A DNA stretch of 64,000 nt from an uncultured delta proteobacterium (GTDB lineage: Bacteria > Desulfobacterota > Desulfobaccia > Desulfobaccales > 0-14-0-80-60-11). Location: positions 41,348-105,347 of the forward strand of contig CAVTZS010000008.1 of assembly GCA_963739295.1 (NCBI GenBank), given 5' to 3'. This document shows positions 156 to 59,976 of this stretch, one piece after another (the stretch's first letter is position 1; the number at the start of each line of letters is the position of its first letter). The position numbers and the translations under genes are program-made. The notes below the pieces were generated by a model. It saw only the letters and a list, made by a program, of their open reading frames with translations, was not told the origin of the DNA and ran no database searches.

Positions 156-438
156 ATGGAAGGGCGCCTCATCAACATTGGCTTTGGCAACACGGTGATC
201 TCCAGTCGGGTGGTCGCGGTGGTGATGCCCAGTTCAGCTCCCAGTAAGCGTCTCAGGGAGGAGGCCAAAAATACGGCAGCGCCTCATTGATGCCACCCAC
301 GGTCGCAAGACCCGCTCCATCATTATTACCGACAGCAACCATGTGATTCTTTCGGCCGTGCATGCCGACACCTTGGCGCTGCGCCTCAGCGGCTACAATG
401 CCTCGCCCCGGCCGGAACTGATGGAGAAGGTCAGTTAA
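156..438 (+). pseudogene. remA: RemA/DUF370 family regulator, interrupted by a 1-nt frameshift
   Basis: ATG at 156 gives [39 protein letters not shown], then TGA at 288-290. The +1 frame continues [38 protein letters not shown]... to TAA at 436-438. Joined, they give a colinear RemA-length protein. The shift lies at or next to the A5 run at 267-271. Confidence 0.7.
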
Positions 439-1053: not shown

Positions 1054-1138
1054 GTTCTCAGCTTTCGGTTTCCGCTTCCCGGTCTTAAAGCCTCAGCTAC
1101 TAATACCCAGCGGCATTCAAAGGATTATTTTTACTGGT

Positions 1139-1212
1139 GGGGCGGGCCTCCGTGCCCGCCATCTTGTTTGCCATAATTATGCTGACTTTGGGCAGGCACG
1201 GAGGCCTGCCCC
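1139..1212. repeat. long GC-rich hairpin (about 22-nt arms, about 29-nt loop)
   Basis: GGGGCGGGCCTCCGTGCCCGCC (1139-1160) is the near-perfect reverse complement of GGGCAGGCACGGAGGCCTGCCCC (1190-1212). There is one wobble and one mismatch. Confidence 0.7.
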
Positions 1213-1595
1213 ACCGAATGAAAGGCAAAGAGGATTGGATTATTAAATGCCAGTTGACTGCAAATTAGTATAAGAGAGCCAATCCGCCTCCAAAGCACGT
1301 CTAGGCGCGGGTTCATGACCTTTCTCGCGGTTTTTTCCAGCACCCTACCGGTAATTTTGATATTATTGAATCAGCCAGGGGAAGAGGAAATTGGTGAATG
1401 ATGCCAGGGGGATGCATCCCTGGCAGCCAGCCCCCACCTCTCATGGCTTTCATTAGGTCAGGGGAGCCCCCAGGCCCCTGGCCTTCGCCCCACGCACTAG
1501 CAGGCAGAGATCCGAGAAGGGAGGCAGGCCCAGGCAGGCATGGTTTAGCAGGCTGGACCTCTTTAATCTCCCCAGGCCCAAGGTGGAACCCAGAG

Positions 1596-4070
1596 ATGTC
1601 AGACAAGACCGCGGCCCAAGTGGCAAAGGATTTGGAGCAGCAAGATTCCGGGGACCAGGAGCATCGCCAGGAGCTCTATCTGTTCAACAAGATAGCCACT
1701 ATTACCTCCCACACCCTGGATTTGCAGGAAATCATCAACGAGGCCCTGGCCACCGTCCTGGAGTTTCTCCAGATCGAAGCCGGGTTATTGCTCCTCTGGG
1801 ATCGGCTGCGGCAGCGCCTGACTTATGCCGCCTCCCGGGGCTTTCCCCCGGAATATCTGCAGGAAATCTCCAGCGGTAAACTGGAGAGCGTCATCGGGCC
1901 CAGCCTGGCTGGCGCCACCCAACCCCTGATCATTCGTGACATCCACCAGGACCCCCGCGTCTTTACTTCCACTTTCACGGAACTGATCCGGCAAGATCCA
2001 AGGTTCCGGTCAGTGGTTAGCATTCCTCTCAAATACCGGGAAGAGGTCACCGGCTTTCTCAATCTGGCCTCCGCCACCCCCGAGCCTTTTCCGTCTTCCC
2101 GACAATATTTCTTCGCCATTTTGGGAAACCAGATCGGCCTGGCCATCGAAAACGCCCGCCTCTATAACGAGCTTACCCGCTCGGAGCGGCGTTACCGGCG
2201 CATCTTTGAAGGTTCCAAGGACATGATCTTCGTCACCGACCGGGAAGGAAAGCTGCTGGACCTGAACCCGGCGGGAGTGGAACTTTTGGGGTTTTCTTCC
2301 AAGGCCGAAGCCCTGGGTTTACCCCATCTTCGGGAAATCTTCTTGAACCCTTCCAGTTGGGAGCGCTTCCAGATCCTGGTGGAAGTGGAGGGCTTTGTGA
2401 GAGACTTGGAATTGATCCTCAACCCCAGAGGAGGAAAGCAGGTGCCGGTCCTGCTCACCGGCATTGTGCGCCGGGACAAAGAGGGCCTCATCACCGGCTA
2501 TGAGGGTATCGTCAAGGACATTACCGAACACAAACGCAGCGAAGAGGAAATCCTGCGGGAGAAAAAGACCACCGAGGGAATTCTCGAGGGCATGCCGGTG
2601 CCCACCTTCGTCATCAATCGCGATCACCGCATCAGCTACTGGAACCGGGCCTGCGAAGAGTTGACCGGGTATTCCCGGCACGAAATGGTGGGGACCTACC
2701 GCTACTGGCTGCCGTTTTATGCCCATGAGCGGCCCAGCATGGCCTCCCTGGTGGTGGAGCAGAATATCAAAGCCCTGGAGAGATTCTTCGGGGACAAGAA
2801 TCTCAAACGCTCCCCTAACCTCCCCGGGGCTTACGAAGCTTACGAGTACTTGCCTGACTTCCCGGGCCGGGAGCGCTACCTGTACCATACTGCTTCCCCC
2901 ATCTTCGACGAGAAAGGCCAGATTCAGGGGGCGGTGCAGGCCATTTTGGATATGACCGAGCGGGAGCAACTGGCCCGGGAACTCAAAGACTCCGAAGAAA
3001 AGTTCCGCCGCCTGGTGGAGACCTCTTTAGACGGCATAGTCCTGCATAGTGACATGAGGTTGCTTTATGTAAACCGCGCCTGCCTGGAGATGCTGGGTTA
3101 CCAGGAGCCCTCGGAGATGTTGGGGCGGCACTTACTTAATTTCATCGATCCGCCTTACCATCACGCCGCCTCCCGGCGCCTGTCGCAAATCATGCAGGGA
3201 GCTTCCCGGCCCCGGATCTTCCAAATGAAAGGCCTCAAGAAGGACGGGAGCAAATTCGACCTGGAGGTGGTCTCCTTCCCCACCACCTATGAAGGCAAGC
3301 CCGCCATCCAGACCCATGTCCGGGATATCACCCTAAAGAAACACCTGGAGGAACATTTGGCGCGCACGGAGAAGCTGGCGGCCCTGGGGCAGCTGGCGGC
3401 CGGGGTGGCCCACGAAATTAATAATCCTCTGGGAGGGATCCTGGTTTACAGCTATCTGCTGCTGGAAGACCTGGAGGGAGGGCGGCCGGAGCGGGCCCAG
3501 GTGGAGAAGATCGTGCGGGAAGCCACCCGCTGCAAAGAGATAGTGCAAGGCTTGCTGGACTTCTCCCGGCATATGCCCTCCAAAATGGTGCCCCTGAATA
3601 TTAATGCCCTCCTGGAGGAGGTGTTCTCCCTGGTGGAGGACCATCTCCTCTTTCAAAACATCAATCTGGTGCGGAACTTACAACCCCGGCTTCCCGCGGT
3701 CCCGGGGGATAAAAACAAACTGGAGCAGGTTTTTATCAACCTGTTGATGAATAGCGGAGAAGCCATGAAGGGAGAGGGGCAGCTTACCGTGACCACCTCC
3801 GTGGAAAAGGAAGACCAGGTGCATATCCGCTTCCAAGATTCGGGCCCGGGTATCCCCAAGAACTATCTCAGCCGCCTTTTCGATCCCTTTTTCACCACCA
3901 AGGAGGTGGGCCAGGGCGTAGGGTTAGGGTTATCCATCAGTTACGGGATCATCCAGAAACATCTGGGACGGATTTATGTAGAGCAGACCGGGGCGGAAGG
4001 CACCACCTTTGTGATCGAACTCCCGTTCTACAAGGAAATCCAGGGAAGGAGAATCCCGGAAAAAACTTAA
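1596..4070 (+). CDS. multi-sensor histidine kinase (GAF + several PAS + HisKA + HATPase_c)
   Basis: Long ORF. GAF-like N-terminal region, repeated PAS-like blocks, H-box HEINNPL, and N/G boxes (NLLMNSGEA, DSGPGI, GLGLSISYGI). I prefer ATG 1596 (MSDKTAAQ...) over the ORF-track start at 1398, because the upstream stretch is Pro/Gly-rich and low-complexity. Confidence 0.9.
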   Translation: MSDKTAAQVAKDLEQQDSGDQEHRQELYLFNKIATITSHTLDLQEIINEALATVLEFLQIEAGLLLLWDRLRQRLTYAASRGFPPEYLQEISSGKLESVIGPSLAGATQPLIIRDIHQDPRVFTSTFTELIRQDPRFRSVVSIPLKYREEVTGFLNLASATPEPFPSSRQYFFAILGNQIGLAIENARLYNELTRSERRYRRIFEGSKDMIFVTDREGKLLDLNPAGVELLGFSSKAEALGLPHLREIFLNPSSWERFQILVEVEGFVRDLELILNPRGGKQVPVLLTGIVRRDKEGLITGYEGIVKDITEHKRSEEEILREKKTTEGILEGMPVPTFVINRDHRISYWNRACEELTGYSRHEMVGTYRYWLPFYAHERPSMASLVVEQNIKALERFFGDKNLKRSPNLPGAYEAYEYLPDFPGRERYLYHTASPIFDEKGQIQGAVQAILDMTEREQLARELKDSEEKFRRLVETSLDGIVLHSDMRLLYVNRACLEMLGYQEPSEMLGRHLLNFIDPPYHHAASRRLSQIMQGASRPRIFQMKGLKKDGSKFDLEVVSFPTTYEGKPAIQTHVRDITLKKHLEEHLARTEKLAALGQLAAGVAHEINNPLGGILVYSYLLLEDLEGGRPERAQVEKIVREATRCKEIVQGLLDFSRHMPSKMVPLNINALLEEVFSLVEDHLLFQNINLVRNLQPRLPAVPGDKNKLEQVFINLLMNSGEAMKGEGQLTVTTSVEKEDQVHIRFQDSGPGIPKNYLSRLFDPFFTTKEVGQGVGLGLSISYGIIQKHLGRIYVEQTGAEGTTFVIELPFYKEIQGRRIPEKT

Positions 4071-4285: not shown

Positions 4286-4510
4286 TTGAAAGAAGATACC
4301 AAGAAGTTTTTGAAGGAGTTGTTTTCCGGGGGCTACCGGGCCAGTGCCATCGGCCTTTCCTTGGTTCTGGCCATCTTCATCGGCGCCTTTCTCGGCTACT
4401 TGCTGGACAACTATTTGGGCACCAGCTATTTTTTCAAGATCGTCGGCTTGCTCCTGGGGATTATCGCTGGCTTTTGGAACGTCTACGTCATGGGCCAGAA
4501 GCTGAAGTGA
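4286..4510 (+). CDS. AtpZ/AtpI family small membrane protein
   Basis: 74-aa ORF with a TTG start and two hydrophobic helices. It is the first gene of an F0 cluster. Confidence 0.65.
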   Translation: MKEDTKKFLKELFSGGYRASAIGLSLVLAIFIGAFLGYLLDNYLGTSYFFKIVGLLLGIIAGFWNVYVMGQKLK

Positions 4511-4517
4511 GGGGCGC

Positions 4518-4949
4518 ATGGATTTAATGTCCCCCCGCCACCTGAAGATCGCCAATTGGGTAGTGTTGACGGTACTGGTGCTGGTGGGTCTTCTCTGGCA
4601 GGGCCCAAAGTTCGCTCTCGGGGTGCTGCTCGGGGGCGTGGTGGTAAATGTTAATTTCCATTTGCTGCATCGCACTCTGAAAGGCATCTTCGATGAGGTG
4701 CAGAAACATCCCGAAGAGGCTAGAGGTAAAGCCCAGGCCTTTTTCGCCGCCAGGCAAATGTTACGCTTCTTGGCCTTGGTGGCCATCGTCTATCTCCTGG
4801 TGGGCCACGGCTGGGTCAATATCTTCGGGCTGGTGGTGGGGCTGTCCACCGTGGTCCTGACCCTGGTCCTGGCCGGGATCAACGAACTGTTCAAGCAAAG
4901 ACATAAGGAGGCAAACCGGGCTCATGGAACATCCCATTCTCTTTCTTGA
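4518..4949 (+). CDS. atpI: ATP synthase subunit I-like membrane protein
   Basis: 143-aa hydrophobic ORF immediately upstream of atpB and overlapping it. Confidence 0.6.
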   Translation: MDLMSPRHLKIANWVVLTVLVLVGLLWQGPKFALGVLLGGVVVNVNFHLLHRTLKGIFDEVQKHPEEARGKAQAFFAARQMLRFLALVAIVYLLVGHGWVNIFGLVVGLSTVVLTLVLAGINELFKQRHKEANRAHGTSHSLS

Positions 4950-19287: not shown

Positions 19288-20007
19288 ATGAGCGGTTGGG
19301 GAAAAACTATTCTGGTTTTCCTGGGGTTGGTATGCCTGGCCTCAGGAGTGTGGGCCCAAGAGGACTTGCTGGCCCAGGGAGTGGCGGCGCAAAAGGCCAT
19401 GAAGAATGAGCAGGCGGTGCAACTTTTGGGGGAATACCTCAAGGAGCATCCGGATTCCGTGGAAGCGAGGCGCTACCGGGCCCTGGCCTTGCTCGCCTTA
19501 AACCGCCAGACTGAGGCCCTGGAAGATGTGGAAAAAGGCCTGGCCTCCCATCCTAAGGATACTGGTTTGCTTCTGGCTCAGGGCAAAGCCCTGGCCTCCC
19601 TGGACCGCCGGGCTGAGGCCGACGCGGTTTTTTCCCGGGTCATCGCCCAGGATCCCAAAAACGTCGAGGCCTACATGGACCGGGGGGACAATCTAGGTCA
19701 GGAAGGCCGCTTTGCCGAGGCCATGAAAGATTTTAACCGGGCCGCGGCCCTGGCTCCCAAGGACCCCTGGGTTTACAACCGAAGGGGGATAATACGGTTT
19801 TGCCAGGGCCACTACCAGGCGGCGGTGGCTGATTTAAGTAGAGCCATCCGCCTGCGCCCGGATCTGCCCCATGCCTACTTCGCCCGGGCCAATATCTACC
19901 GCTTTCATCTGGGCCAGGAGAAAAAGGCAGTGGCTGACTACCAGCAGGCCTGCAAGTTGGGAATACCCCTGGCCTGCCGGGAATTGGAGAAGATGGGGGG
20001 GAAATAG
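19288..20007 (+). CDS. tetratricopeptide repeat protein (secreted)
   Basis: Signal peptide MSGWGKTILVFLGLVCLASGVWA, followed by several TPR units. The ORF-track TTG at 19273 is an alternative start. Confidence 0.8.
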   Translation: MSGWGKTILVFLGLVCLASGVWAQEDLLAQGVAAQKAMKNEQAVQLLGEYLKEHPDSVEARRYRALALLALNRQTEALEDVEKGLASHPKDTGLLLAQGKALASLDRRAEADAVFSRVIAQDPKNVEAYMDRGDNLGQEGRFAEAMKDFNRAAALAPKDPWVYNRRGIIRFCQGHYQAAVADLSRAIRLRPDLPHAYFARANIYRFHLGQEKKAVADYQQACKLGIPLACRELEKMGGK

Positions 20008-20122
20008 CGGTTGGCGGTCAGCGATCAGCGGTCAACCACGTCTTTTTGGACATTTAACTTGGGTATCTCAAAACAGAAAACAGAAAACAGAAAACAGAAA
20101 ACTGACAGCTGAAAGCTGGCCG
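20008..20122. repeat. heptanucleotide tandem-repeat element (GGTCAGC-type array, spacer, (AAACAGA)x4, CTGACAG-type array)
   Basis: Read directly: GGTTGGC GGTCAGC GATCAGC GGTCAAC ... AAACAGA x4 AAACTGA CAGCTGA AAGCTGG. Confidence 0.85.
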
Positions 20123-45045: not shown

Positions 45046-45138
45046 ATAGTAGTCAGTGGCCAGTAGTCAGTAGCCAGTAGCCAGTAAAAACAGAAAACAG
45101 AAAACAGAAAACAGGTAGCTGGCAACTGGCAACTGGAA
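45046..45138. repeat. heptanucleotide tandem-repeat hairpin element ((CAGTRRY)x5, (AACAGAA)x3, (GCAACTG)-type x3)
   Basis: In a continuous 7-nt register: CAGTGGC CAGTAGT CAGTAGC CAGTAGC CAGTAAA AACAGAA AACAGAA AACAGAA AACAGGT AGCTGGC AACTGGC AACTGGA. Confidence 0.9.
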
Positions 45139-47423: not shown

Positions 47424-47843
47424 TTGCGTATCTGCGTCATCGACGGCCAGGGGGGCGGCATCGGCGCGGCTCTCATCAAGCGCCTGAAGGAGGTCTACCG
47501 GGAAGAGCACGAGGTCATCGCCCTGGGCACCAATGCCGTGGCCACCGCGCAGATGATGAAGGCTCGGGCCAATCGTGGGGCCAGCGGGGAAAACGCCATC
47601 GTCCGTACGGTGATGAGGGTGGATGTCATCCTGGGGCCCCTGTCCATCGTGTTGGCCAACTCCATGATGGGGGAACTCACTCCCCGGATGGCGGAGGCCA
47701 TTGCCTCGGCGCCGGCCCCCAAGATCCTTTTGCCTTTGACCCAGGAGCGGGTGGAGATCGTGGGCTTGAGCCCCGAGCCCCTGCCCCACCTGGTGGAAAA
47801 GATCGTCAGTGAACGACTGAAGGAGTTACTTAGCCATGTGTGA
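47424..47843 (+). CDS. DUF3842-like protein
   Basis: 139 aa, TTG start. The N-terminus MRICVIDGQGGGIGAALIKRLKE matches this family as I recall it. Confidence 0.55.
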   Translation: MRICVIDGQGGGIGAALIKRLKEVYREEHEVIALGTNAVATAQMMKARANRGASGENAIVRTVMRVDVILGPLSIVLANSMMGELTPRMAEAIASAPAPKILLPLTQERVEIVGLSPEPLPHLVEKIVSERLKELLSHV

Positions 47844-48024
47844 AGCTTCAGCTTATATGCTCAAAGACGGCCAGGAGGAACTGCTCCTCACGGAAGTGGA
47901 CACCATCGAACCTGAAGGGGAGAACCTGCGCATCGTCAATATCTTCGGAGAACAAAAGGTCATCAAGGCCGCCATTCACAGCCTCAACCTGGTGAACCAT
48001 AAGGTCATCCTGGTGGAGAAATAA
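47836..48024 (+). CDS. CooT-like small nickel-binding/RNA-binding-fold protein
   Basis: 62 aa, with MCEA at the N-terminus (Cys2) and the pattern ...VNIFGEQK...HKVILVEK. It overlaps the DUF3842-like gene by 8 nt. Confidence 0.55.
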   Translation: MCEASAYMLKDGQEELLLTEVDTIEPEGENLRIVNIFGEQKVIKAAIHSLNLVNHKVILVEK

Positions 48025-48143: not shown

Positions 48144-49073
48144 ATGGTTGGAAAGCTGGAAAAAGTAGCCCTGCGTGAAGTTTGGTCAAAAGAGGCAAAG
48201 GATTTCACAACATGGCTTCTTAACAATAGTGATATTCTATCAGAGCAGTTAGGCATAGAGATTTCTACTTTAGAGAGAGAAAAGACAGTAGGCACATTTG
48301 CCGTTGATCTTGTTGGAACAGACAGCAACGGTAATCCGATAATCATAGAGAATCAGCTTGAAAAAACAGATCACGACCATTTAGGCAAGGTTCTTACGTA
48401 TCTTTCTAACCTAAACGCCAAGACTGCTGTCTGGATTGCAAGTGATCCCAGGCCTGAACATATTGCCGCTATAAATTACCTTAATGAAGTCGTGCCCGAT
48501 GACACCAATTTTTATCTCGTTCGAGTAGAGGCTTTTCGCATCAGAGATTCTGAGCCTGCACCTTTATTTACTGTGGTGGCCGGGCCAAGCCCTGAGGTTA
48601 GGAAAAGAGGAAAAATAAAAAAAGAACTCGCCGAAAGTGAGCAAAAGCGGCTGGAGTTCTTTACTCAACTGCTTGAACGATCTAACGCGAAAACCTCCCT
48701 ATTTAAGAACATTTCGCCCACCGGTTACCAAAACTGGCTTAACGCAGGAGCAGGAAAGTCTGGATTAGGTTGGACCTATTCTGTAAGGCGCAATGACGCC
48801 AAAGTGGAATTGTTCTTTCAATTTCCCGACCAAGACGTCAATTCAAAAAGATTTAAGGCCTTAAAGGCCAATAAAGAAGAAATAGAATCTCTGTTTGGCG
48901 AGCCTTTAGACTGGGATTTTAAGGATACACGTAAACAGCAGTATATCCGTTCTCGGTGTAGTATTGGAGGTTTATCCAATGAAGACAAGTGGCCGAAAAT
49001 TCAAAACGATCTTGTTGATCGTATGATTCGTTTGGAAAAGGCACTGAGAGAATATATCACATCATTGCCATAA
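48144..49073 (+). CDS. DUF4268 domain protein with an N-terminal PD-(D/E)xK nuclease-like module
   Basis: 309 aa, AT-rich. N-terminus FAVDLVGTDSNGNPIIIENQLEKTDHDHLGKVLTYLSNL (D...ExK pattern). The C-terminal half carries the DUF4268-like pattern. GGAGG lies 8 nt before the ATG. Confidence 0.7.
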   Translation: MVGKLEKVALREVWSKEAKDFTTWLLNNSDILSEQLGIEISTLEREKTVGTFAVDLVGTDSNGNPIIIENQLEKTDHDHLGKVLTYLSNLNAKTAVWIASDPRPEHIAAINYLNEVVPDDTNFYLVRVEAFRIRDSEPAPLFTVVAGPSPEVRKRGKIKKELAESEQKRLEFFTQLLERSNAKTSLFKNISPTGYQNWLNAGAGKSGLGWTYSVRRNDAKVELFFQFPDQDVNSKRFKALKANKEEIESLFGEPLDWDFKDTRKQQYIRSRCSIGGLSNEDKWPKIQNDLVDRMIRLEKALREYITSLP

Positions 49074-49092: not shown

Positions 49093-49139
49093 AAAAAAGC
49101 AGGGAGGCTGGGCTTATAGCCCAGCCTCCCTGCTTTTTT
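49093..49139. terminator. bidirectional intrinsic terminator between convergent genes
   Basis: AAAAAAGCAGGGAGGCTGGGC-TTAT-AGCCCAGCCTCCCTGCTTTTTT. Confidence 0.75.
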
Positions 49140-50449: not shown

Positions 50450-51703
50450 TTAATCCTCAATTTCCTTCAAGGTAATCCGGGCGTCGATGCGCAAATTTTC
50501 CTGGAAAAGGCGCCGGGCCAGGCGGCAGAGGCCTTCCAGGGCCTTGACCTCATCGGAGAATAACGTCTCATCCAGGGTCAGTTCGATGTCCAGAAGCTCC
50601 AGGCCTTCTTCTTCTACTACCTGCCAGCGGTAGCGGGGCAAGTGGCCTCCCAAACAATCCTTAAGCAACAGGCCGATCTGGTCCGGGTGCACCTTGATGC
50701 CGCCCACCGCAAAGATGGCGTCCACCCGGCCGGTGATCTCCCCCAGGCGCATAAGGGTGCGCCCGCAGGGGCAGGGCTTCGTCACCAGGCGGGTGCGGTC
50801 GCCGCTTCGGAAGCGCACCAGCGGGAAGGCCACGGTGCTCAGGGTGGTGACCACCAGTTCTCCCGGCGCGCCGGGGGGTACCGGAATGCCGGTCTCCGGG
50901 TCAATGATCTCCGGGTAAAAATGGTCCTCCGAGAAGTGAAACCCATGGTCTGCGCCGCAACTGAAGGCCAGGCCGGGACCCATTACCTCGGTGATGCCAT
51001 AGGCCCCGGCCACCTGGACCTGGAAGCCTGCTTCGATTTCCCCCCGGACCTCTGGCGGCAGCGGCGCGGCCACCAGCAAGGCCTTTTTGAGACTCAGTTC
51101 CGTGGGGGCCAGATCCATGCGCGCCATCACTGTGAGTAAATGCCGGGCCAGGGAAGGGGTGGTGACCAGGACCGAGCTCTTGTAGTCCCGCATCACCATT
51201 AACTCTTTGGCGAAATTGAGCGTAGCCGCGGGGATCACCGAGGCCCCCAGGTATTCGGCCCCGGCCTGCAGGTCCCGGCGCCAGTTGGCCAGGCCTCCGG
51301 GCAAAATGAGTTGCACAATGTCTTCTCGGGTGATGCCCGCGGCGGCGTAGAGGCGGGCCAGCAGCTCCTGCCAGAGTTTCACATCCTGGGCGGTGTAGCC
51401 CACCACCAGGGGTTTTTCCGTGGTGCCGGGAGAGGATTGGATGCGCACGATGTCCCGGAGAGGCACCGCAAAGAGGCCGTAAGGATAGTTTTCCGACAGG
51501 TCCTCCCGGGTGGTAAAGGGGAGCCGGGCCAGGTCTCTTAGGTCCCGGATGTCGTCCAGGCGCACCCCTAAGCGCTCGAACTGGCGGCGGTAGAACTTGA
51601 CCTGGCGATAAGCCCGGGTGAGGGTGCTCTGGAGACGCTCCAACTGCAGCAACTCCAGCTCTTCCCGGTCCATGGCCTCAACGTCGGGCTGGCGCACGGG
51701 CAC
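50450..51703 (-). CDS. phenylacetate--CoA ligase family protein (divergent paralogue)
   Basis: 417 aa, PaaK-like throughout (FTTREDL..NYP, SSPGTTEKP, YGITEV, C-terminal domain). It overlaps the livF stop by 1 nt. Confidence 0.85.
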   Translation of the reverse strand: MPVRQPDVEAMDREELELLQLERLQSTLTRAYRQVKFYRRQFERLGVRLDDIRDLRDLARLPFTTREDLSENYPYGLFAVPLRDIVRIQSSPGTTEKPLVVGYTAQDVKLWQELLARLYAAAGITREDIVQLILPGGLANWRRDLQAGAEYLGASVIPAATLNFAKELMVMRDYKSSVLVTTPSLARHLLTVMARMDLAPTELSLKKALLVAAPLPPEVRGEIEAGFQVQVAGAYGITEVMGPGLAFSCGADHGFHFSEDHFYPEIIDPETGIPVPPGAPGELVVTTLSTVAFPLVRFRSGDRTRLVTKPCPCGRTLMRLGEITGRVDAIFAVGGIKVHPDQIGLLLKDCLGGHLPRYRWQVVEEEGLELLDIELTLDETLFSDEVKALEGLCRLARRLFQENLRIDARITLKEIED

Positions 51704-52440
51704 TACCTCCCTTCGGTGAATTCCTTGTAATCACGGCCCAGGTAGGCCCGGGTCACCTGGCGGTCCCGGAGCAGGTCCTGGGCGGTGCCGCTCAAGATGA
51801 TGCGGCCGGTTTCCAAAACGTAGGCCCGGTCGGCTACCTTCAGGGCGGCCCGGGCATTCTGTTCCACCAGGAGAATGGTGAGGCCCTCGACGCGCAGGCG
51901 GTTCAGAGTGGCCAAAATGTCCTCCAGCACCAGGGGGGCCAGGCCCAGGGAGGGCTCATCCAGGAGCAGGAGCCGGGGGCGGGCCATCAAGGCGCGGCCG
52001 ATGGCCAGCATCTGCTGCTCCCCTCCGCTCAGGGTATCGGCCCTCTGCCCCACCCGCTCCTTAAGGCGGGGGAATAGCCGGTAAACCCGCTCCAGGTCCT
52101 CGTTAATGGCGGCGCGAGTTTCCCGGCGAAAGCGGCAATAAGCGCCCAGTTCCAGATTTTCCAGCACCGTCATGGGCGCAAAGAGCTGGCGCCCCTCAGG
52201 CACCTGGGAAATCCGCAAGGCCACAATCTCTTCCGGGGCCAGGCCGGTTAAGGAGCGGCCATCAAAGGCGACCTCCCCCTTAAGGCGCACCAGCCCGCAG
52301 ATGGCGTTGAGCAGGGTGGTCTTGCCCGCGCCGTTGGCGCCAATCAGGGCGACGCTCTCGCCCTCCTTGACGTGGCAGGTCACCCCGCTGAGGGCGGTGA
52401 CGGAGCCGTAATAGGCGTAAAGGTTGCGAATTTTAAGCAT
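51703..52440 (-). CDS. livF: branched-chain amino acid ABC transporter ATP-binding protein
   Basis: Walker A GANGAGKTT, signature LSGGEQQMLAIGRAL, LLLDEPS. Confidence 0.9.
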   Translation of the reverse strand: MLKIRNLYAYYGSVTALSGVTCHVKEGESVALIGANGAGKTTLLNAICGLVRLKGEVAFDGRSLTGLAPEEIVALRISQVPEGRQLFAPMTVLENLELGAYCRFRRETRAAINEDLERVYRLFPRLKERVGQRADTLSGGEQQMLAIGRALMARPRLLLLDEPSLGLAPLVLEDILATLNRLRVEGLTILLVEQNARAALKVADRAYVLETGRIILSGTAQDLLRDRQVTRAYLGRDYKEFTEGR

Positions 52441-52446
52441 TTTTAA

Positions 52447-52471
52447 AGTAGCCAGTAGTCAGTAGCCAGTG
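52447..52471. repeat. heptamer array (AGTAGCCAGTAGTCAGTAGCCAGTG), left arm flanking the four-helix-bundle gene
   Basis: Read directly. It is the imperfect inverted partner of 52878-52912. Confidence 0.8.
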
Positions 52472-52498
52472 TTTTTAGATTTTCATTTCTTTGGTTAA

Positions 52499-52858
52499 TT
52501 ATTGTTTTCTGATGGAGGCCAACAGCCCGTTTAAAATACGCCCCACTTCCGAGGCAAGATTCAATAAACCGGTCACTTCCTTCTCATCGAGGTAATCAAG
52601 ATTTTTGGCAATGAGAATTTGGGTTTTCAACTCTGATAATGAACCTCTGGCATGCCCCAGAAATTGATGAAATTCTTTCTTAGATAATCTTTCCTGACCT
52701 TCAGCAATATTGCTGGGGATCGATACTGCCGCGCGGCGGAGTTGACTCATCAGGCCGAATGTTTCTTCCTTGGGGAACTTTTGGCTAAGCCGATAGATTT
52801 CGGTCACCAACTCCATGGCTTTATTCCAGGCCACTAAGTTTCGATAAGATTGCCCCAT
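52499..52858 (-). CDS. four helix bundle protein (23S rRNA intervening-sequence protein / Avd-type family)
   Basis: MGQSYRNLVAWNKAMELVTEIYRLSQKFPKEE..GLMSQLRRAAVSIPSNIAEGQER.SKKEF.QFLGHARGSLSELKTQILIA is the family pattern. ATG 52858 gives 119 aa, and TTG 52870 is an alternative start. GC looks lower than the flanking liv genes by eye. Confidence 0.85.
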   Translation of the reverse strand: MGQSYRNLVAWNKAMELVTEIYRLSQKFPKEETFGLMSQLRRAAVSIPSNIAEGQERLSKKEFHQFLGHARGSLSELKTQILIAKNLDYLDEKEVTGLLNLASEVGRILNGLLASIRKQ

Positions 52859-52877
52859 ATTTCTCACCAAAATTCTT

Positions 52878-52912
52878 CAACTGACAACTGACAGCTGCCA
52901 ACTAACAACTGC
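52878..52912. repeat. heptamer array (CAACTGACAACTGACAGCTGCCAACTAACAACTGC), right arm flanking the four-helix-bundle gene
   Basis: Read directly. Confidence 0.8.
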
Positions 52913-52918
52913 TCTGAA

Positions 52919-53704
52919 TCACGCCTGCCAGTCGGTGCCCAAATACGCGGCGATTACCTCCGGGTGCCTCTGGATGGCCCGGGGCGGGCCGTCGGCGATG
53001 AGGCGGCCGTAGTTGAGCACCGCAATCTCATCCGCCACCTCCATGGTGAGGGCCATGTCGTGCTCCACCAAGAGGACGGTAATGCCCTGAGCCCGCAGGG
53101 CCAGGATCATTTCTGCCAGGCGGTCGGTTTCCCCGGCATCCAGTCCCGAGGCGGGCTCGTCCAGGAGCAGGAGGGTGGGTTCCGCGGCCAGGGCCCGGGC
53201 CATCTCCAGCAAGCGTTTTAAGCCTAAGGGCAGGATGGCCGCTATCTGGTGCGCCCGATCCGCCAGCCCCATGAACTCCAAGGCCTCCCAGGCCCGCTGG
53301 CGGATCAGCCCCTCTTCCCGGCGACTCCTGGGGAGGCGGAAGGCCCCGGACAAGAGCCCGGCGTGGCTCAGGCGGTGGCGTCCCACCATGACGTTCTCCA
53401 GGACGGTCATATGGTCAAAGAGTTGCACCAACTGGAAGGTGCGGGCAATGCCCAGGGCGGCCAGGGCATGGGCCGGTTTTCCCTGAATCTCTTGGCCCCG
53501 AAAGATGACCCGGCCCGCCTGGGGGGTAAGGAAACCCGTCACCAGATTAAACAGGGTGGTCTTGCCCGCGCCGTTGGGCCCGATGATCGCCTTGATGGCG
53601 CCCGGGGGCACCGAAAAGCTAACCCGCTCCAGGGCCTGAAGGCCGCCAAAGGCCAGGCTGATTTCTTGTAAATCCAGGAGCGCTTTATCTGGTAACAAAT
53701 CCAT
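52919..53704 (-). CDS. livG: branched-chain amino acid ABC transporter ATP-binding protein
   Basis: Walker A GPNGAGKTT, LPLGLKRLLEMARAL, LLLDEPASG. Confidence 0.9.
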   Translation of the reverse strand: MDLLPDKALLDLQEISLAFGGLQALERVSFSVPPGAIKAIIGPNGAGKTTLFNLVTGFLTPQAGRVIFRGQEIQGKPAHALAALGIARTFQLVQLFDHMTVLENVMVGRHRLSHAGLLSGAFRLPRSRREEGLIRQRAWEALEFMGLADRAHQIAAILPLGLKRLLEMARALAAEPTLLLLDEPASGLDAGETDRLAEMILALRAQGITVLLVEHDMALTMEVADEIAVLNYGRLIADGPPRAIQRHPEVIAAYLGTDWQA

Positions 53705-53722: not shown

Positions 53723-53818
53723 CCACCAAGACACCAAGGACACCAAGAAACAGAGAGAATAATAATTGTGGCCAAAAGGCACAATTATTATTCCTTGGTG
53801 ATCTTTGTGTCTTGGCGG
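53723..53818. repeat. long imperfect inverted repeat filling the livM-livG spacer
   Basis: Core 14-bp perfect stem GAATAATAATTGTG (53757-70) / CACAATTATTATTC (53780-93). It is extended by CCAAG/CTTGG-type repeats (CCACCAAGACACCAAGGACACCAAG ... CCTTGGTGATCTTTGTGTCTTGGCGG). Confidence 0.8.
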
Positions 53819-54781
53819 TTAAATTATTCCCCCTTCCCGCTTGTAGCGGCGGTGCTCCCACAGGTCCATAATCCCCCGCACCAGACCCCGGGGGAGAAAG
53901 ATCATCACCACCATGAGAATGGCCCCGAAGATGACCACCTCATAGTCATGGAATAAGGTTAACAGCTCCGGCAGCACCGTCAGCACTGCGGCCCCCAGCA
54001 GAGAGCCCCAGATGCTGGCCATGCCCCCCAACACTACCATGGTCACCAGTTTGATGGAAAACATAAAGCCGAAGGACGAAGGGGCGATGAAATTAAGGGT
54101 ATGGGCATAGAGACTGCCGGCCAGGGAGGCGTAGAGGGCGCTCCAGACAAAGATCAGGAGTTTCAACCGGGCGGTGTCCACCGCCAGGGATTGGGCCGCG
54201 GCTTCGCTATCGTGCAAGGCCCGCAGGGCCCTGCCGGTCCGGGAATCCACCAGGTTGGCGCTGAGGGCCAGGATCACCCCCACCACCGGCCAGATCAAGA
54301 GGTAAAGACGCCTGGGGGTGTTTAGCGACCAGGCGCCCAGGGCCAGAGAGGGAATGCCCACCAGACCGGAGGGGCCGCCGGTTAAGGGGGTGGCCTCATT
54401 CAGGATGATGTAGACGATGATGCCGAAGCCCAGGGTGGCCATGGCCAGATAATAACCCCGAAGCTTCAAGGCCGGCACCCCGATGAGAAAGGCCGCGCCC
54501 CCGGAGACCACCAGCCCGGCCAGCAGGGCCAGCCAGGGGTTGACGCCGTAGGTGGCGGTGAGGATGCCCGAGGAGTAGGCCCCCAGGCCGAAAAAAGCGG
54601 CGTGGCCTAAAGAGATCTGTCCGGCATAGCCCATGAGCAGATTGAGGCCCACCACCAGCAGGGTGTGGATGCCCACAAAGTTAATCAGGGTGTAATAGTA
54701 GGCATTATTTAGCCCGGAGGCCACCACCAGGAGGGCCAGGGCGAACAGGGTCCAGCGATTGAGGAATCTTAAGAGGCTCAT
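53819..54781 (-). CDS. livM: branched-chain amino acid ABC transporter permease
   Basis: 320 aa, polytopic, LivM-like. Confidence 0.9.
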   Translation of the reverse strand: MSLLRFLNRWTLFALALLVVASGLNNAYYYTLINFVGIHTLLVVGLNLLMGYAGQISLGHAAFFGLGAYSSGILTATYGVNPWLALLAGLVVSGGAAFLIGVPALKLRGYYLAMATLGFGIIVYIILNEATPLTGGPSGLVGIPSLALGAWSLNTPRRLYLLIWPVVGVILALSANLVDSRTGRALRALHDSEAAAQSLAVDTARLKLLIFVWSALYASLAGSLYAHTLNFIAPSSFGFMFSIKLVTMVVLGGMASIWGSLLGAAVLTVLPELLTLFHDYEVVIFGAILMVVMIFLPRGLVRGIMDLWEHRRYKREGGII

Positions 54782-55647
54782 TTCTGGCCCCCCACCAATC
54801 CCTGGGGGCGCAAGAACAGGACTAACAGGAGGAGGAAGAAGGCCACCGCGTCCCGGTAACCGGAGGAGATGAGGCCAGAGGCCAGGGCTTCCGCCACCCC
54901 CAGCAGGAGACCTCCCAGGACGCCGCCCCCGAGACTTCCCAGGCCGCCGATGATGGCGGCGGAGAAGCCCTTGAGCCCCAGCATGGTGCCCATGTCATAG
55001 ACTCCCAGGGTGAGGGGAGCGATGAGAATGCCCGCCCCGGCCCCAAGAGCGGCGCTGAGACCGAAGGAGAGCTGCACCATGCGGCCCGCGCTGATCCCCG
55101 CCAGGCGGGCGGCCCGGGTATTGTAGGCGCAGGCCCGCATGGCCTTGCCCGCCAGGGTGAGGCGGAAAAAGGCTTCCAGGGCCAACACCAGGAGCCCGGT
55201 GAGGCCCAGGACCCAAAGATTTTGGGGTAAAATCGTGGCCGGCCCCAGGTGTAGGGGGACGCTGCCGGAAAAGGCCGGCAGGGGGTAGGCCTCCTTGCCC
55301 CACAGCAAGGAGGCGGCTCCTTTAAGAAAGACGGCCCCGCCCACGGTGATGATAATCAAGGTGATGGGATTGGGGTCCTTGACCGGGCGCAGGGCCAGCC
55401 GTTCAAAGGCGAGGCCCACCAGGGTCACCAGCCCCACCCCGCCCAGGAAGGCCAGGGGCAAAGAGGCCTGCCAGTGATAAATGCTGATGGCGCATAAAGC
55501 CCCCAGCATCACCATTTCGCCCTGGGCAAAATTGATGATGGTGGTGGCGTTGTAGATGATTCCAAAACCCAGGGCGATAAGGGCGTAGATGGCGCCGTTG
55601 GTCAGGCCGGAGATGAGATACTGCAGCAGGGGGGCAAAAATTTCCAA
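54778..55647 (-). CDS. livH: branched-chain amino acid ABC transporter permease
   Basis: 289 aa, TTG start, LivH-like (NGAIYALIALGF...NFAQGE). Confidence 0.9.
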   Translation of the reverse strand: MEIFAPLLQYLISGLTNGAIYALIALGFGIIYNATTIINFAQGEMVMLGALCAISIYHWQASLPLAFLGGVGLVTLVGLAFERLALRPVKDPNPITLIIITVGGAVFLKGAASLLWGKEAYPLPAFSGSVPLHLGPATILPQNLWVLGLTGLLVLALEAFFRLTLAGKAMRACAYNTRAARLAGISAGRMVQLSFGLSAALGAGAGILIAPLTLGVYDMGTMLGLKGFSAAIIGGLGSLGGGVLGGLLLGVAEALASGLISSGYRDAVAFFLLLLVLFLRPQGLVGGQK

Positions 55648-55668: not shown

Positions 55669-55783
55669 TGGTCAGTGGTCAGTAATCAGTAATCCGTGGT
55701 CAGTAGTCAGTAGGGAGTAGTCAGTAATCAATTACTTGGTCCTGGGGGCAGGTCAAAAACTGATCTCTGACTACTGACAACTG
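55669..55783. repeat. heptamer-array hairpin element in the livK-livH spacer
   Basis: Left: GGTCAGT GGTCAGT AATCAGT AATCCGT GGTCAGT AGTCAGT AGGGAGT AGTCAGT AATCA. Right: CTGATCTCTGACTACTGACAACTG. GTCAGTAGTCAG and CTGACTACTGAC are perfectly complementary. Confidence 0.85.
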
Positions 55784-55792
55784 TCTCCTATA

Positions 55793-56950
55793 TTAATCCA
55801 GTAGTTGGAAAGTCCCTTTTTCGATCTTCACCATGACAAAGGCAGCCGGGGTGAGGCCGTTATGGTCTTCAGGGCTCATATTGAAGATGCCGCTGATGCC
55901 CACGAAATTTTTGGTGTTTTCCAGTTCGTTCCGGATCTTTTCCTGGTCCTTGCCGGATTTCTCCAGGGCCAGGACCAACATCTTGAAGGCGTCGTAAGCA
56001 TAAGCCCCGAAGCTGGACTCGGGAGCTTTGAATTTGGCTCGATATTTTTCGGCATACTCCCGACATACGGCCTTTTGTGGATCAGAGTCGGGCAACAGTC
56101 CATAGACCACCAGCTTGCCCGCGGGCATGATAATGCCTTCGCCCGCTTCTCCGGCCAGCTCGATAAATTTCTGGGACGCCGCCCCGTGGCTCTGGATAAG
56201 CGGCAGCTTGAGCCCCAATTGTTTCATATTCTTGGCCACCAGGGCCGGGGCCGGGCCGGTGCCCCAACAGATTACCGCCAGGGCCGGGGTCCCCCGGATC
56301 TTGGTGAGCTGGGGAGTCATGTCCGTGTCCTTCTCTCCGAAGACCTCCTGAGCCACTACCTCGATGCCGTATTGCGGGGCCAGGGCCAGGAGTTGCTCTT
56401 TGCCCGAGACCCCGAAGCCGGTAGACACGGTGAGGATCGCCACCTTGAGCAGTCCGTGTTTTTTGGCGAATTGATAGATGCGGCTCACCGCCATCTGATC
56501 GGTCTGGGCCGTTTTAAAGACCCAACGGCGCTCCTGGGCCGGGGCCGTGATGCCAATGCCCGCGGCGCAAGAAACCAAGGGCACCTTGGACTTTTGCGTC
56601 AGGTCCAACACGGTCATGGAGGTATGGGTCAGGCTGGGGCCGATAATGGCCAGCACCTTGTCCTTCTGCAGGAGCTTTTCCGCATGGAGGCGGGCCTTGG
56701 TGACATCTCCCTCATCGTCGTAAATGACCAGCTTTACGGGATGGCCCTTGAGGCCCCCTTTACTGTTGATGTCTTCCGCCACCATCTCCATGGTATTGCG
56801 TTCCGGCTCCCCCAGGTAAGAGGCCGGCCCGGTGATGGAGAAGATGCCGCCGATGGCGTAAGGCTCTGCCTCCCGAGAGGGTCCGCAGCCAACCCAAGCC
56901 AGTCCTGTTAGGGCCAGGATTAATAATACGGCAATGGTCTTTCCTTTCAT
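55793..56950 (-). CDS. livK: ABC transporter substrate-binding protein (Leu/Ile/Val-binding family, lipoprotein)
   Basis: 385 aa, with signal/lipobox LTGLAWVGC and a type I PBP pattern. Confidence 0.9.
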   Translation of the reverse strand: MKGKTIAVLLILALTGLAWVGCGPSREAEPYAIGGIFSITGPASYLGEPERNTMEMVAEDINSKGGLKGHPVKLVIYDDEGDVTKARLHAEKLLQKDKVLAIIGPSLTHTSMTVLDLTQKSKVPLVSCAAGIGITAPAQERRWVFKTAQTDQMAVSRIYQFAKKHGLLKVAILTVSTGFGVSGKEQLLALAPQYGIEVVAQEVFGEKDTDMTPQLTKIRGTPALAVICWGTGPAPALVAKNMKQLGLKLPLIQSHGAASQKFIELAGEAGEGIIMPAGKLVVYGLLPDSDPQKAVCREYAEKYRAKFKAPESSFGAYAYDAFKMLVLALEKSGKDQEKIRNELENTKNFVGISGIFNMSPEDHNGLTPAAFVMVKIEKGTFQLLD

Positions 56951-57655: not shown

Positions 57656-58339
57656 TCATGCTCTCATATCTGGGTATGCTTGTTCAATATCCCAAAGAAG
57701 GCGTATCGGGTCGCCAGGCGACAGCAAGCCCAAACCTTTTTCATCTTTGAATAAAGGGGAGTTTTGCAAGGCGCGCTCGATTCGAAAATGTCCCCATTCT
57801 GCAAGCCTCTTTGGTTCATTATCTCTAAAAGTGAAGAGACCGCAATGAGCCGCCGAATTTCTACAATGCCTAAGGAATTCCCAGAGCGGTCCCTTATCAT
57901 GCCATGGTTTATATTTGCTGATCTCGTGCGCCAAGATTAGCAAGCTTCCTCCGGAAAGCAAGGTGAATCGGATTAGGTAGGACGCATTATTCATTAAGTC
58001 GTTCGCGATGTCGTCAACTTCCACCTTAATGTGGTTGCCCTTGAACTCTGACTTAAGCTCAAGCGGCCCTAAGATTTTAGATAAAACGTCAATGATCTCG
58101 GTAAGCTGTTGCTCAACCTCCATCATATCCTTTTCTGAAGCAGATGGTCTTTTCAAAACAGCGCTAGTGAGTGCAGTTAAATGGAGACCTGCATTTGCGC
58201 CAGAAAATTTGTTTAGCTCCTTAATGACTCCCCGCCCTGCAAGGTCTTTAAATCCAATGAGTAGGACCAAGTAATTCATTATCAAAGGGTAGAAAGGCTT
58301 ACTTCTGTCAAAATTATTGATGGGGACGGAAGCACTCAT
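57656..58339 (-). CDS. hypothetical protein with an RNSAAH (Rx4H, HEPN-like) motif
   Basis: 227-aa ORF. AAGGAG lies 5 nt upstream of the ATG. GC is lower than the neighbours by eye. The motif is WEFLRHCRNSAAHCGLFTF. No other recognisable domain. Confidence 0.5.
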   Translation of the reverse strand: MSASVPINNFDRSKPFYPLIMNYLVLLIGFKDLAGRGVIKELNKFSGANAGLHLTALTSAVLKRPSASEKDMMEVEQQLTEIIDVLSKILGPLELKSEFKGNHIKVEVDDIANDLMNNASYLIRFTLLSGGSLLILAHEISKYKPWHDKGPLWEFLRHCRNSAAHCGLFTFRDNEPKRLAEWGHFRIERALQNSPLFKDEKGLGLLSPGDPIRLLWDIEQAYPDMRA

Positions 58340-58440
58340 CGCTTCTCCTTACCCGCATAACATTATGCGCCCTCGGCTTTTTCTGCAGGCGAGAGCGCCT
58401 GCTCCACATCTATGTTTGGCTTCCCGTCTCCAGATAATCC

Positions 58441-59817: not shown

Positions 59818-59976
59818 GGTTTTCTGTTTTCTGTTTCTTGTTTTCTGTGGGGGATTCAGATATTGGCCCGGCTGCCTGGCATCGGCGATGCCTGGTTCCC
59901 TGAGCCTCTTCTATAACCGTTATGCCTATTTCTTTTCCAAACAGAAAACAGAAAACAGAAAACGAAAACAGAAAAC
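59818..59976. repeat. large hairpin: (GTTTTCT)n arm, a loop of about 87 nt, (AGAAAAC)n arm
   Basis: Left: GGTTTTCTGTTTTCTGTTTCTTGTTTTCTGTGG (59818-59850). Right: CCAAACAGAAAACAGAAAACAGAAAACGAAAACAGAAAACC (59937-59976). Confidence 0.85.

Follow-up and report, generated by a model that had tools for sequence, protein, structure and literature searches.

An intervening-sequence-like cassette in the liv-paaK operon of an uncultured Desulfobaccales bacterium: a four-helix-bundle gene between inverted heptamer arrays

Introduction

Among described systems, the closest to the locus studied here are the intervening sequences (IVSs) of 23S rRNA genes that carry an S23p open reading frame (ORF), as in Leptospira, Coxiella burnetii and Azospirillum lipoferum. 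In C. burnetii, tandem GACAGAT heptamers lie upstream of the S23p ORF and a 28-bp terminal stem closes the element; RNase III cuts it in vitro, rapid amplification of cDNA ends (RACE) gave ends mid-stem, the 5' cut was placed by the authors at the start of the first repeat, and the ORF was argued to be decaying (PMC4990558). Here we describe an element of comparable build at positions 52441-52918 of a 64,000-nucleotide stretch of DNA from an uncultured delta proteobacterium of the order Desulfobaccales (the window: assembly GCA_963739295.1, contig CAVTZS010000008.1, positions 41,348 to 105,347). It consists of a gene for a four-helix-bundle (4HB) protein between two inverted heptamer arrays, and it lies in the spacer between livG and livF, two ABC ATPase genes of a protein-coding operon.

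Tandem heptamers have also been reported on their own. Those of type GGGAATC in Xanthomonas, called enigmatic by Rehm et al., have ∼186 occurrences and form ∼70 convergent pairs per genome (PMC4692102). For Geobacter metallireducens, the searchable text describes operon spacers in which arrays of 4-5 hepta- or octanucleotides come in pairs, termed global regulator sites and entered as putative IHF/HU sites, with IS110-family elements annotated beside many pairs and two types of insertion sequence (IS) inserted near pairs; 4HB genes are unmentioned in that text (PMC2700814).

The relationship of the 4HB family to Avd, a basic protein with a homologous four-helix-bundle fold found in diversity-generating retroelements (DGRs), is known (PMC10053308), as are the ORF-bearing IVS elements, the heptamers of the Coxiella IVS and the intergenic heptamer arrays of several phyla. 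What appears to be new is the rule that a gene of family PF05635, in an operon as in rRNA, has on its two sides inverted period-7 arrays that covary, and with it the finding that the Xanthomonas gene XCC0516 lies between GGGAATC arrays. The Coxiella observation aside, this rule is not stated in the literature that could be searched, which included few subscription journals; an earlier description is possible.

The cassette and its gene

The cassette shares the minus strand with livG and livF. In the order of transcription, its parts and the two host genes are as follows; arrays were located with Tandem Repeats Finder (TRF).

52919-53704, minus strand: livG-like ABC ATPase gene, upstream host gene (ORF list and profile matches)
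52878-52912, minus strand: 5' arm, in transcript sense GCAGTTG TTAGTTG GCAGCTG TCAGTTG TCAGTTG (TRF, sequence)
52859-52877, minus strand: linker with a Shine-Dalgarno-like GGTGAG before the ATG (sequence)
52499-52858, minus strand: gene for the 4HB protein, 119 aa, PF05635 / TIGR02436 (profile matches, homologue starts)
52447-52471, minus strand: 3' arm, in transcript sense CACTGGCT ACTGACT ACTGGCT ACT (TRF, sequence)
51703-52440, minus strand: livF-like ABC ATPase gene, downstream host gene (ORF list and profile matches)

An earlier note on this DNA, made from the letters alone, had proposed a 119-aa four-helix-bundle gene of lower GC content than its neighbours, and both points were borne out. 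The mechanical ORF list bounds the gene at 52499-52870 (minus strand); because homologues are mostly 118-119 aa long with the N-terminus M-x-QSY, its start was placed at the ATG at 52858, which gives 119 aa. The protein matches PF05635 over profile positions 1-106 of 106 (E 4.7e-41, 139.7 bits against a curated cutoff of 33.8) and TIGR02436 with 132.9 bits (curated cutoff 24). The gene has a GC content of 0.444, and of 0.49 at third codon positions (GC3), against 0.65 and 0.82 for the neighbouring ATPase genes. A similar offset was seen across 70 loci, where 4HB genes had a GC content of 0.50 and their flanks 0.60 (correlation r = -0.35); in L081-L160 the genes stay at ∼50% while the host flanks span 52% to 67% (L-numbers denote loci of relatives, of which L001, a Desulfobaccales metagenome-assembled genome, is the closest named one). 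A GC content ∼10 points under that of the flanks is compatible both with ongoing horizontal flow and with a loop whose sequence is constrained, and does not tell the two apart.

The 4HB protein is basic, with a pI of 9.5. Its relatives in the PDB, 2GSC (E 1.5e-25), which is XCC0516, and 2RLD, were deposited with five chains each, and the title of the 2GSC paper speaks of an assembly of five four-helix bundles; the window protein is probably pentameric. Among relatives the median dN/dS was 0.084 (interquartile range 0.066-0.114, 124 pairs), and at a ratio of ∼0.08 the protein is maintained by purifying selection. One relative, at L001:2558-2917 in the livM-livG spacer, has an in-frame TAG at codon 80 and intact arms, and is either a pseudogene or the product of an assembly error. 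The distance from array end to start codon has a median of 25 nt in relatives. Scans for promoters and terminators gave nothing beyond weak consensus matches inside the cassette, including a promoter-like site in the 5' arm that agrees at 9 of 12 positions, and an Rfam scan found no known RNA family, and no rRNA, anywhere in the window.

Weak matches to the models bAvd (PF22296, 42.1 bits against a cutoff of 40) and DivGenRetAVD raise the question of whether the gene is the orphaned Avd of a former DGR. The score for NF033474 was 39.7 bits, below the Avd equivalog cutoff of 80, the ORFs scanned from 42 to 64 kb included no reverse transcriptase (RT), and the search of 44-60 kb for long direct repeats of the template/variable repeat (TR/VR) type returned just the heptamer arrays and the paralogy of livF and livG. 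An Avd in a true DGR, in contrast, has its VR, TR and RT context and lacks arrays: beside the one in Pseudoalteromonas phage ACA1 (27% identity), taken as a negative control, there is an adjacent RT and a long duplicated, VR/TR-like stretch on either side, and no flanking arrays were found. The candidate was therefore rejected on its model score and on the lack of RT and TR/VR in the regions named, and such an origin is extremely improbable; the earlier note had likewise concluded that this is not a DGR.

Both arms have period 7. TRF reports the 5' arm as CAACTGA x4.9 at 52878-52911, starting 6 nt past the livG stop codon, and its unit is of the CAGT type seen in the upstream units of relatives. 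The 3' arm is reported as AGTAGCC x3.4 at 52447-52470 and ends 6 nt short of the livF ATG; one of its units differs in a 98.8%-identical strain variant. The earlier note was right to call the arms inverted heptamer arrays and overestimated their complementarity at ∼6 of 7 positions per unit, as they are 75% complementary over 24 nt, or ∼5.3 of 7. When the whole cassette RNA is folded to its minimum free energy, the two arms are paired; the duplex of the arms has -25.5 kcal/mol (z = -2.6 against shuffles). Taken alone, the stem of the window is moderately above chance, and it is the statistics of the family that decide.

Arrays and covariation across the gene family

A metagenome scan with the window 4HB protein yielded a Desulfobaccales-type set of 80 loci at 61-76% identity, with 82 genes. 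When period-7 arrays within 130 nt of a gene were scored, 68 of the 82 had one upstream, 74 had one downstream and 61 had both, and the two flanks were inverted complements at z > 7 against shuffles in most of the loci. A more distant set of 38 distinct genes from IMG/VR contigs (38-59% identity) had arrays on both sides in 24 cases and an inverted match with z of at least 5 in 28. Plasmid copies also have arms, with units GGGTGTA / CTACACC in Calothrix, GGAGATA / ATCTCCT in Picosynechococcus and GGTTTAA / AACCTTG in Riemerella. Pooling gave 123 distinct relatives at 27-76% identity, with an upstream array in 104, a downstream array in 103 and both in 91. The census that the earlier note had called for thus finds 4HB genes systematically flanked by inverted heptamer arrays. 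Among the 207 pooled arrays the period was 7 in 198, 8 in eight and 6 in one, the copy number had a median of 4.4 (interquartile range 3.6-4.7), and the upstream arrays fell into 47 distinct unit types.

The raw density of arrays was 6.7 per kb beside 4HB genes and 0.33 per kb elsewhere, a 21-fold enrichment that is inflated by the coding DNA in the background. Compared with other intergenic spacers (2.4 per kb), the density was ∼2.8-fold higher and arrays on both sides were found in 74% against 20% (61 of 82 4HB spacers; among the other spacers, 10 of 51 had at least two arrays; Fisher p = 5e-10).

The two arms covary. Over 50 distinct unit pairs there were 1.08 mismatches per 7-nt unit, against 2.98 ± 0.12 with permuted partners, and the lowest mean among 2000 permutations of the arms was 2.52. 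In relatives, 87.5% of stem pairs are Watson-Crick and the median stem is 30 bp long. The stems contain 76 G.U and 66 A.C oppositions (p = 0.45).

The orientation of the arms is fixed as well: the G-rich one lies on the 5' side of the gene. In the CAGT-type subfamily, 39 of 58 loci have CAGT upstream and ACTG downstream and one locus has the reverse. On the sense strand, G exceeds C in 34 upstream unit types and is exceeded in 11, while downstream types show the opposite (G<C in 36, G>C in 8). Neighbouring genes run in the direction of the 4HB gene in 99 of 118 cases; in 34 of 45 they do so on both sides. Polarity and co-directionality are strand-specific features, and they fit a function at the level of the transcript. 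The 4HB gene of Nostoc sp. PCC 7120 plasmid gamma (L161:1357-1990) has period-7-like runs on its two sides that are not complementary, of the ACTTCAA type upstream and CTTCTGC / CCTCTGC downstream; since an ISL3 transposase gene lies immediately upstream, its original 5' arm may have been displaced.

The same build in 23S rRNA and in other operons

One hit of the family search, on an A. lipoferum plasmid, is a 4HB gene inside a large subunit (LSU) rRNA gene (Rfam LSU 286-3333; 4HB 1501-1833, same strand). This genuine 23S IVS is bounded by GAGGACG x3.9 at 1442-1468 and GTCTTCT x4.1 at 1878-1906. Because the IVSs of Azospirillum and Coxiella share arms built of heptamer arrays, the window element is the same kind of unit placed in an mRNA, and the earlier note's description of an IVS-like stem-ORF-stem cassette within an mRNA operon proves to be a general one. 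Stem-ORF-stem is the normal form of the 4HB family across phyla, including inside 23S rRNA, and the cassette is usually co-directional between host genes. The likeness to the 23S IVSs with an S23p ORF extends to the protein family, the heptamer arms, an orientation co-directional with the host transcript, and the lack of a promoter or mobility gene of its own. The window cassette differs in that its host transcript is protein-coding (livG-livF) and not helix 45 or 25 of 23S rRNA, and in that the protein is under strong purifying selection in its clade whereas the Coxiella ORF was argued to be decaying.

Orthologues of XCC0516 lie between accB and accC throughout Xanthomonas, flanked by CGGGAAT x4.4 and CCCATTC x4.3. 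In X. campestris (L218:2429-2872) the upstream unit of the XCC0516-type gene is of the GGGAATC type and the downstream one is C-rich and complementary; X. citri L220 and L221 likewise have such a gene between accB and accC, and in L220 TRF reported the upstream array only, at the threshold used. The main text on the Xanthomonas heptamers mentions neither XCC0516 nor accB nor biotin (PMC4692102). Also in L218, at 4358-4827 and 3' of accC, there is a 97-bp unit x4.9 (90% match), unrelated to the cassette. In a type III-B CRISPR operon on a Picosynechococcus sp. PCC 7003 plasmid (L163:1495-1851), cas10/cmr2 and cmr3 are separated by a 4HB cassette. The reported "CRISPR association" of the 23S rRNA IVP domain (PMC10910872) may partly reflect cassette insertions.

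Gain, loss and inheritance in liv-paaK operons

A scan with LivF, one genome per species, allowed livG to be placed upstream of livF in 78 of 80 loci. In 70 of these 78 other genomes the gap was <100 nt, and stop and start codons often overlapped. The two genes are normally adjacent, as the earlier note had stated, and the cassette is thus an insertion relative to the general state. The remaining liv genes of the window are:

55793-56950, minus strand: livK
54778-55647, minus strand: livH
53819-54781, minus strand: livM

On the 3' side of livF follow a phenylacetate-CoA-ligase-like gene, here called paaK, and a second binding-protein gene; the livF-paaK junction of the window is ∼5 nt long and holds no arrays. 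Comparison of orthologous liv-paaK operons, at 74-89% protein identity, located 4HB cassettes as follows.

Upstream of livK: L097, L100, L101, L108, L111
livM-livG spacer: L001, L084, L087, L088 (livM side off the contig for L084 and L088)
livG-livF spacer: the window, L167 (the 98.8%-identical variant), L169-171, L095, L102, L128, L093
livF-paaK spacer: L089, L090, L093, L096

The placement of L084, where the livG side alone is on the contig, is probable. L093 has two cassettes (livG-livF and livF-paaK), and L168 has no 4HB cassette and an inverted heptamer pair in each of its four spacers read. The cassette is thus gained or lost at four spacers of the liv-paaK operon, and the livG-livF junction, whose comparison the earlier note had suggested, holds it in some relatives while others have it elsewhere in the operon or lack it. 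At the livF-paaK spacer, L089 has a 4HB gene between AGTAGCC / ACTGACT arms, L168 has non-coding DNA between GTGAGCA / CTGCTCA arms, and the window has nothing. The sequence of the arms varies with the occupant of a single spacer, which argues that an insert brings its arms along and does not land between arms already in place.

The 4HB proteins group according to the spacer that they occupy, with 79% identity within and 67% between positions, and the livG-livF group is heterogeneous. Most pairs of close cassettes have syntenic flanks at similar identity, so that inheritance is mostly vertical and recent movement rare. Near-identical cassettes were considered as a sign of recent transposition and rejected as such, given that most close pairs are syntenic. 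The sole clear exception, L089/L092, is 94.8% identical over 502 nt, with homology that ends at the outer array edges and downstream flanks that do not match; it is confounded and was not counted as proof of movement because an IS-like gene abuts the L092 copy. The earlier suggestion of a mobile or formerly mobile unit is supported by the comparison of orthologous operons, where four spacers are occupied, sometimes two at once or none; most close copies are inherited in place and have not moved recently. These comparisons suggest that insertion was old or infrequent and was followed by vertical inheritance and by loss in some lineages, rather than active hopping.

In L169 (2690-4070), and likewise in L170 and L171, the livG-livF spacer contains DUF559 (Vsr-like) and Y1_Tnp (PF01797) genes upstream of the 4HB cassette; in L170 the stretch is present and the two genes were not called intact. 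These three loci have two further copies of the final ∼75 nt of livG, one before the Y1_Tnp gene and one before the 4HB 5' arm, as if each successive insertion had regenerated the 3' end of livG.

GTAG is the tag of the repetitive extragenic palindrome (REP) families, and many of the heptamer units contain it. The arms might act as DNA, in hairpins or cruciforms that are REPIN-like or attC-like and are moved in trans by HUH/Y1 enzymes or by homologous exchange, with the RNA stem as a by-product. The stems show no excess of G.U over A.C, as such a role would allow; Y1_Tnp and DUF559 genes share the livG-livF spacer with the 4HB gene in L169 and L171, after the ∼75-nt duplicate of the livG 3' end; and dispersed arrays of one unit family would offer homology for exchange. 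REPs and REPINs with their REP-associated tyrosine transposases (RAYTs, of the Y1 type) are similar also in being dispersed intergenic hairpins of which many lack an ORF and few enclose a gene. They differ in that the gene enclosed in the window encodes no transposase and that its arms are tandem heptamers, not single palindromes. Moreover, neither the window nor any 4HB locus other than those named has a Y1_Tnp or DUF559 homologue, for which reason both were rejected as mobilisers of the cassette, and a tblastn search with the L169 Y1_Tnp found no match in the window; nor was an integrase, as an integron would have, found among the Pfam-scanned ORFs of 42-64 kb. Units in other phyla lack GTAG, the polarity follows the direction of gene and transcript, and the one stem studied experimentally is an RNA substrate of RNase III (PMC4990558). 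We regard a DNA-level role of this kind as doubtful. It is not exclusive of the favoured reading, that of an IVS-type cassette carried on host transcripts, as one concerns movement and the other, through the RNA stem, tolerance.

Arrays without a gene

Five pairs of arrays in the window enclose no ORF. All fold as long hairpins, with z from -3.3 to -9.4.

20006-20118, plus strand: AGCGGTC x4.1 / GAAAGCT-type pair with an (AAAACAG)x4.7 array in the loop (TRF, fold)
45048-45136, plus strand: AGTAGCC x5.6 / GGCAACT-type pair with (AAAACAG)x4 in the loop (TRF, fold z = -4.4)
53724-53818, minus strand: CACCAAG-type pair in the livM-livG spacer (TRF, fold z = -9.4)
55671-55790, minus strand: GTCAGTA-type / ACTGACA-type pair in the livK-livH spacer (TRF, fold)
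59819-59976, no strand assigned: GTTTTCT x4.3 / AAACAGA x5.6 pair around ∼90 nt (TRF, fold)

The four arrays that the earlier note had listed, at 20008, 45046, 55669 and 59818, are therefore present, and the pair at 53724-53818 adds a fifth. The pair at 45048-45136, which lies between a probable asd gene and a gene of the Iso_dh family that is probably leuB, belongs to the same direct-repeat family as the arrays at 52447 and 55671. The note had taken such arrays for empty versions of the cassette, a reading that is borne out in part: the arrays are real, array pairs are common in these genomes regardless of content, and their units mostly differ. In 51 other spacers of related loci, 29% had an array and 20% had two or more. 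Of 95 arrays that lie over 250 nt away from the nearest 4HB gene, 71 differ from the 4HB arms of their locus at 2 or more of 7 positions, with 2.28 mismatches on average to arms of their own locus against 2.89 to arms elsewhere. A strict RAYT/REPIN-like model, in which the 4HB arms are of the unit type of the other arrays in the genome, was rejected: the signal of 2.28 against 2.89 is weak, and most other arrays differ.

Tandem heptanucleotide arrays between genes are what defines the cyanobacterial short tandemly repeated repetitive (STRR) sequences. The window has such arrays in a host that is not cyanobacterial, with units that differ from those of STRR1-3. The resemblance to the STRR, Xanthomonas (PMC4692102) and Geobacter (PMC2700814) arrays lies in the period of 7, in the ∼4-5 or more units, in the position in spacers, often of operons, and in the frequent convergent inverted pairs. 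In the searchable text of those reports, however, the arrays are described alone, as G-quadruplexes, IHF/HU sites or markers, and are not linked to 4HB genes, whereas those around the window gene are the termini of a cassette.

These observations could mean that the arrays are a generic feature of spacers that the host owns, resembling STRRs, REPs or bacterial interspersed mosaic elements (BIMEs) and serving as mRNA stabilisers or protein-binding sites, with the 4HB gene as a chance passenger. The five ORF-less pairs of the window, the pairs in the four operon spacers read in L168, which has no 4HB gene there, the arrays in 20-29% of other spacers, the ∼70 convergent GGGAATC pairs of Xanthomonas (PMC4692102) and the paired arrays that the searchable Geobacter text places in operon spacers (PMC2700814) are all as this would have it. 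A passenger would not be expected to produce the excess of two-sided arrays at 4HB genes (61/82 against 10/51 spacers, p = 5e-10) or a fixed orientation of the gene relative to the arms. The same architecture is found within 23S rRNA, where there is no host spacer hairpin (PMC4990558), the sequence of the arms changes with the occupant at one spacer, and the homology of L089/L092 stops at the outer edges of the arrays. We therefore consider host ownership of the arrays unlikely.

The protein itself could be the partner of the arrays. A basic pentameric 4HB protein might bind the heptamers of its own transcript and those of ORF-less arrays elsewhere, each protomer taking one unit, as an autoregulated ribonucleoprotein that would control stem formation, RNase III cutting or translation and possibly maintain the arrays. 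An array length that peaks at ∼4-5 units (median 4.4) across 47 upstream unit types would suit the five chains of 2GSC and 2RLD and the five bundles of the 2GSC title; the pI of 9.5, the strong purifying selection and the lower mismatch of distant arrays to arms of their own locus (2.28 against 2.89) point the same way, as does the flanking of XCC0516 by a GGGAATC-type unit that has ∼186 occurrences in Xanthomonas (PMC4692102). A length of 28-35 bp, however, is equally explained by the minimum stem for RNase III, and because 71 of the 95 distant arrays have at least 2 mismatches to the arms, one 4HB protein cannot be sequence-specific for all arrays of a genome. Binding of 4HB proteins to heptamers is a prediction, and as a full account of the cassette we think it quite improbable.

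Two further kinds of sequence were seen among the arrays. Arrays of (AAAACAG)n / (AAACAGA)n with 4-5 units occur in the window (20070-20102, 45087-45114, 59939-59976), at L001:3972-3996 and upstream of the livF ATG in L168. They lie in the loop of another heptamer hairpin or right before a start codon, and at 59819-59976 they are paired with (GTTTTCT)n; they look like a unit type in its own right that is widespread and may have a role close to the start of translation. At L168:4255-4500, L168:5245-5560 and L001:3780-4000, livG-livF and livF-paaK spacers that lack a 4HB gene have ∼170-240 nt of non-coding DNA between heptamer arms, with a recurring 'cacaggc...gcctgtg' / 'ggctggaaagcc' hairpin motif. 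This non-coding DNA may be a small cargo of the same array-bounded build, akin to miniature inverted-repeat transposable elements or small RNAs.

Other features of the window

A DUF4268 gene of GC content 0.42 lies at 48144-49073 (plus strand), between a small ORF (47836-48024) and the second binding-protein gene. The small ORF is probably CooT-like, judging by synteny with a CooT gene in L168. On the 3' side of the DUF4268 gene is a perfect 22-bp hairpin with flanking A/T runs (49093-49139), which resembles a bidirectional terminator. The DUF4268 gene appears to be another foreign insertion, one that has no heptamer arms. A 230-aa ORF at 57656-58348 (minus strand) matches no Pfam family and has a low GC3 of 0.48; it, too, may have been acquired.

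Interpretation of the cassette

RNase III sites occur between cistrons in the early mRNA of phage T7 and in the spacers of rRNA operons. The window stem is like them in being a long imperfect stem that could split a polycistronic RNA into stable parts, and unlike them in that it encloses a whole gene and is built of heptamers, with processing that we infer. On balance, we think it somewhat probable that 52441-52918 is an IVS-type, promoter-less 4HB cassette carried on host transcripts, whose arms form a ∼30-bp stem cut by RNase III. The cassette would be transcribed within a livKHMG-[4HB]-livF-paaK mRNA, from no promoter of its own, and its arms would pair into a stem of ∼24-35 bp closing a ∼410-nt loop that contains the ORF. 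Host RNase III would then cut this stem as it does that of the 23S rRNA IVS, freeing a monocistronic 4HB mRNA and splitting the host transcript, with the host RNA still functional. Because cutting would spare the host RNA, a cassette of this kind would be tolerable in any well-transcribed spacer, whether of rRNA or of an operon. Candidate routes of spread are recombination exchange between array-bounded sites and a route through RNA or cDNA.

Several observations weigh against this account. The arms of the window are just 75% complementary, the fold of the whole cassette is unexceptional (z = -1.49), and the G.U and A.C counts in the stems of relatives favour neither pairing at the RNA level nor pairing at the DNA level. 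Transcription with the operon and cleavage by RNase III are drawn by analogy from the 23S IVS. Array pairs that enclose no 4HB gene are common in these genomes, and no transposase, integrase or RT accompanies the window copy of the 4HB gene. Inheritance is, as noted, mostly vertical, and the clustering of the proteins by position would fit old insertion followed by loss as well as it fits hopping. In favour of the RNase III-cut cassette stand the observations on the family: its arms covary and remain complementary, and their polarity is fixed.

Significance

A broader proposal can be made, tentatively and with low confidence, namely that 4HB proteins and inverted period-7 arrays are one widespread two-part system, in which a pentameric protein is the partner of arms of about five units, with about one protomer per heptamer, and in which gene-bearing elements are autonomous and the many ORF-less ones of the same genomes non-autonomous. 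If true, it would explain the heptamer excess represented by the STRR, GGGAATC and Geobacter arrays, the ORFs of 23S IVSs and the Avd homologues outside DGRs. For annotation, "associations" of PF05635 with CRISPR-Cas or other operons may just mark places of insertion. The question is testable in tractable organisms, such as Xanthomonas, where XCC0516 is structurally solved, lies between accB and accC and is flanked by GGGAATC arrays.

Three loose ends thus appear to be one: the ORFs noticed in 23S IVSs in the 1990s, the excess of heptameric tandem repeats in intergenic DNA of Calothrix, Nostoc, Xanthomonas and Geobacter, and the very large family of Avd-like proteins that have no retroelement. 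If the cassette is a gene embedded in transcripts and tolerated by hosts because its arms direct its excision from RNA, it would represent a distinct way for a gene to reside in rRNA and in operons, and an unrecognised source of operon segmentation.

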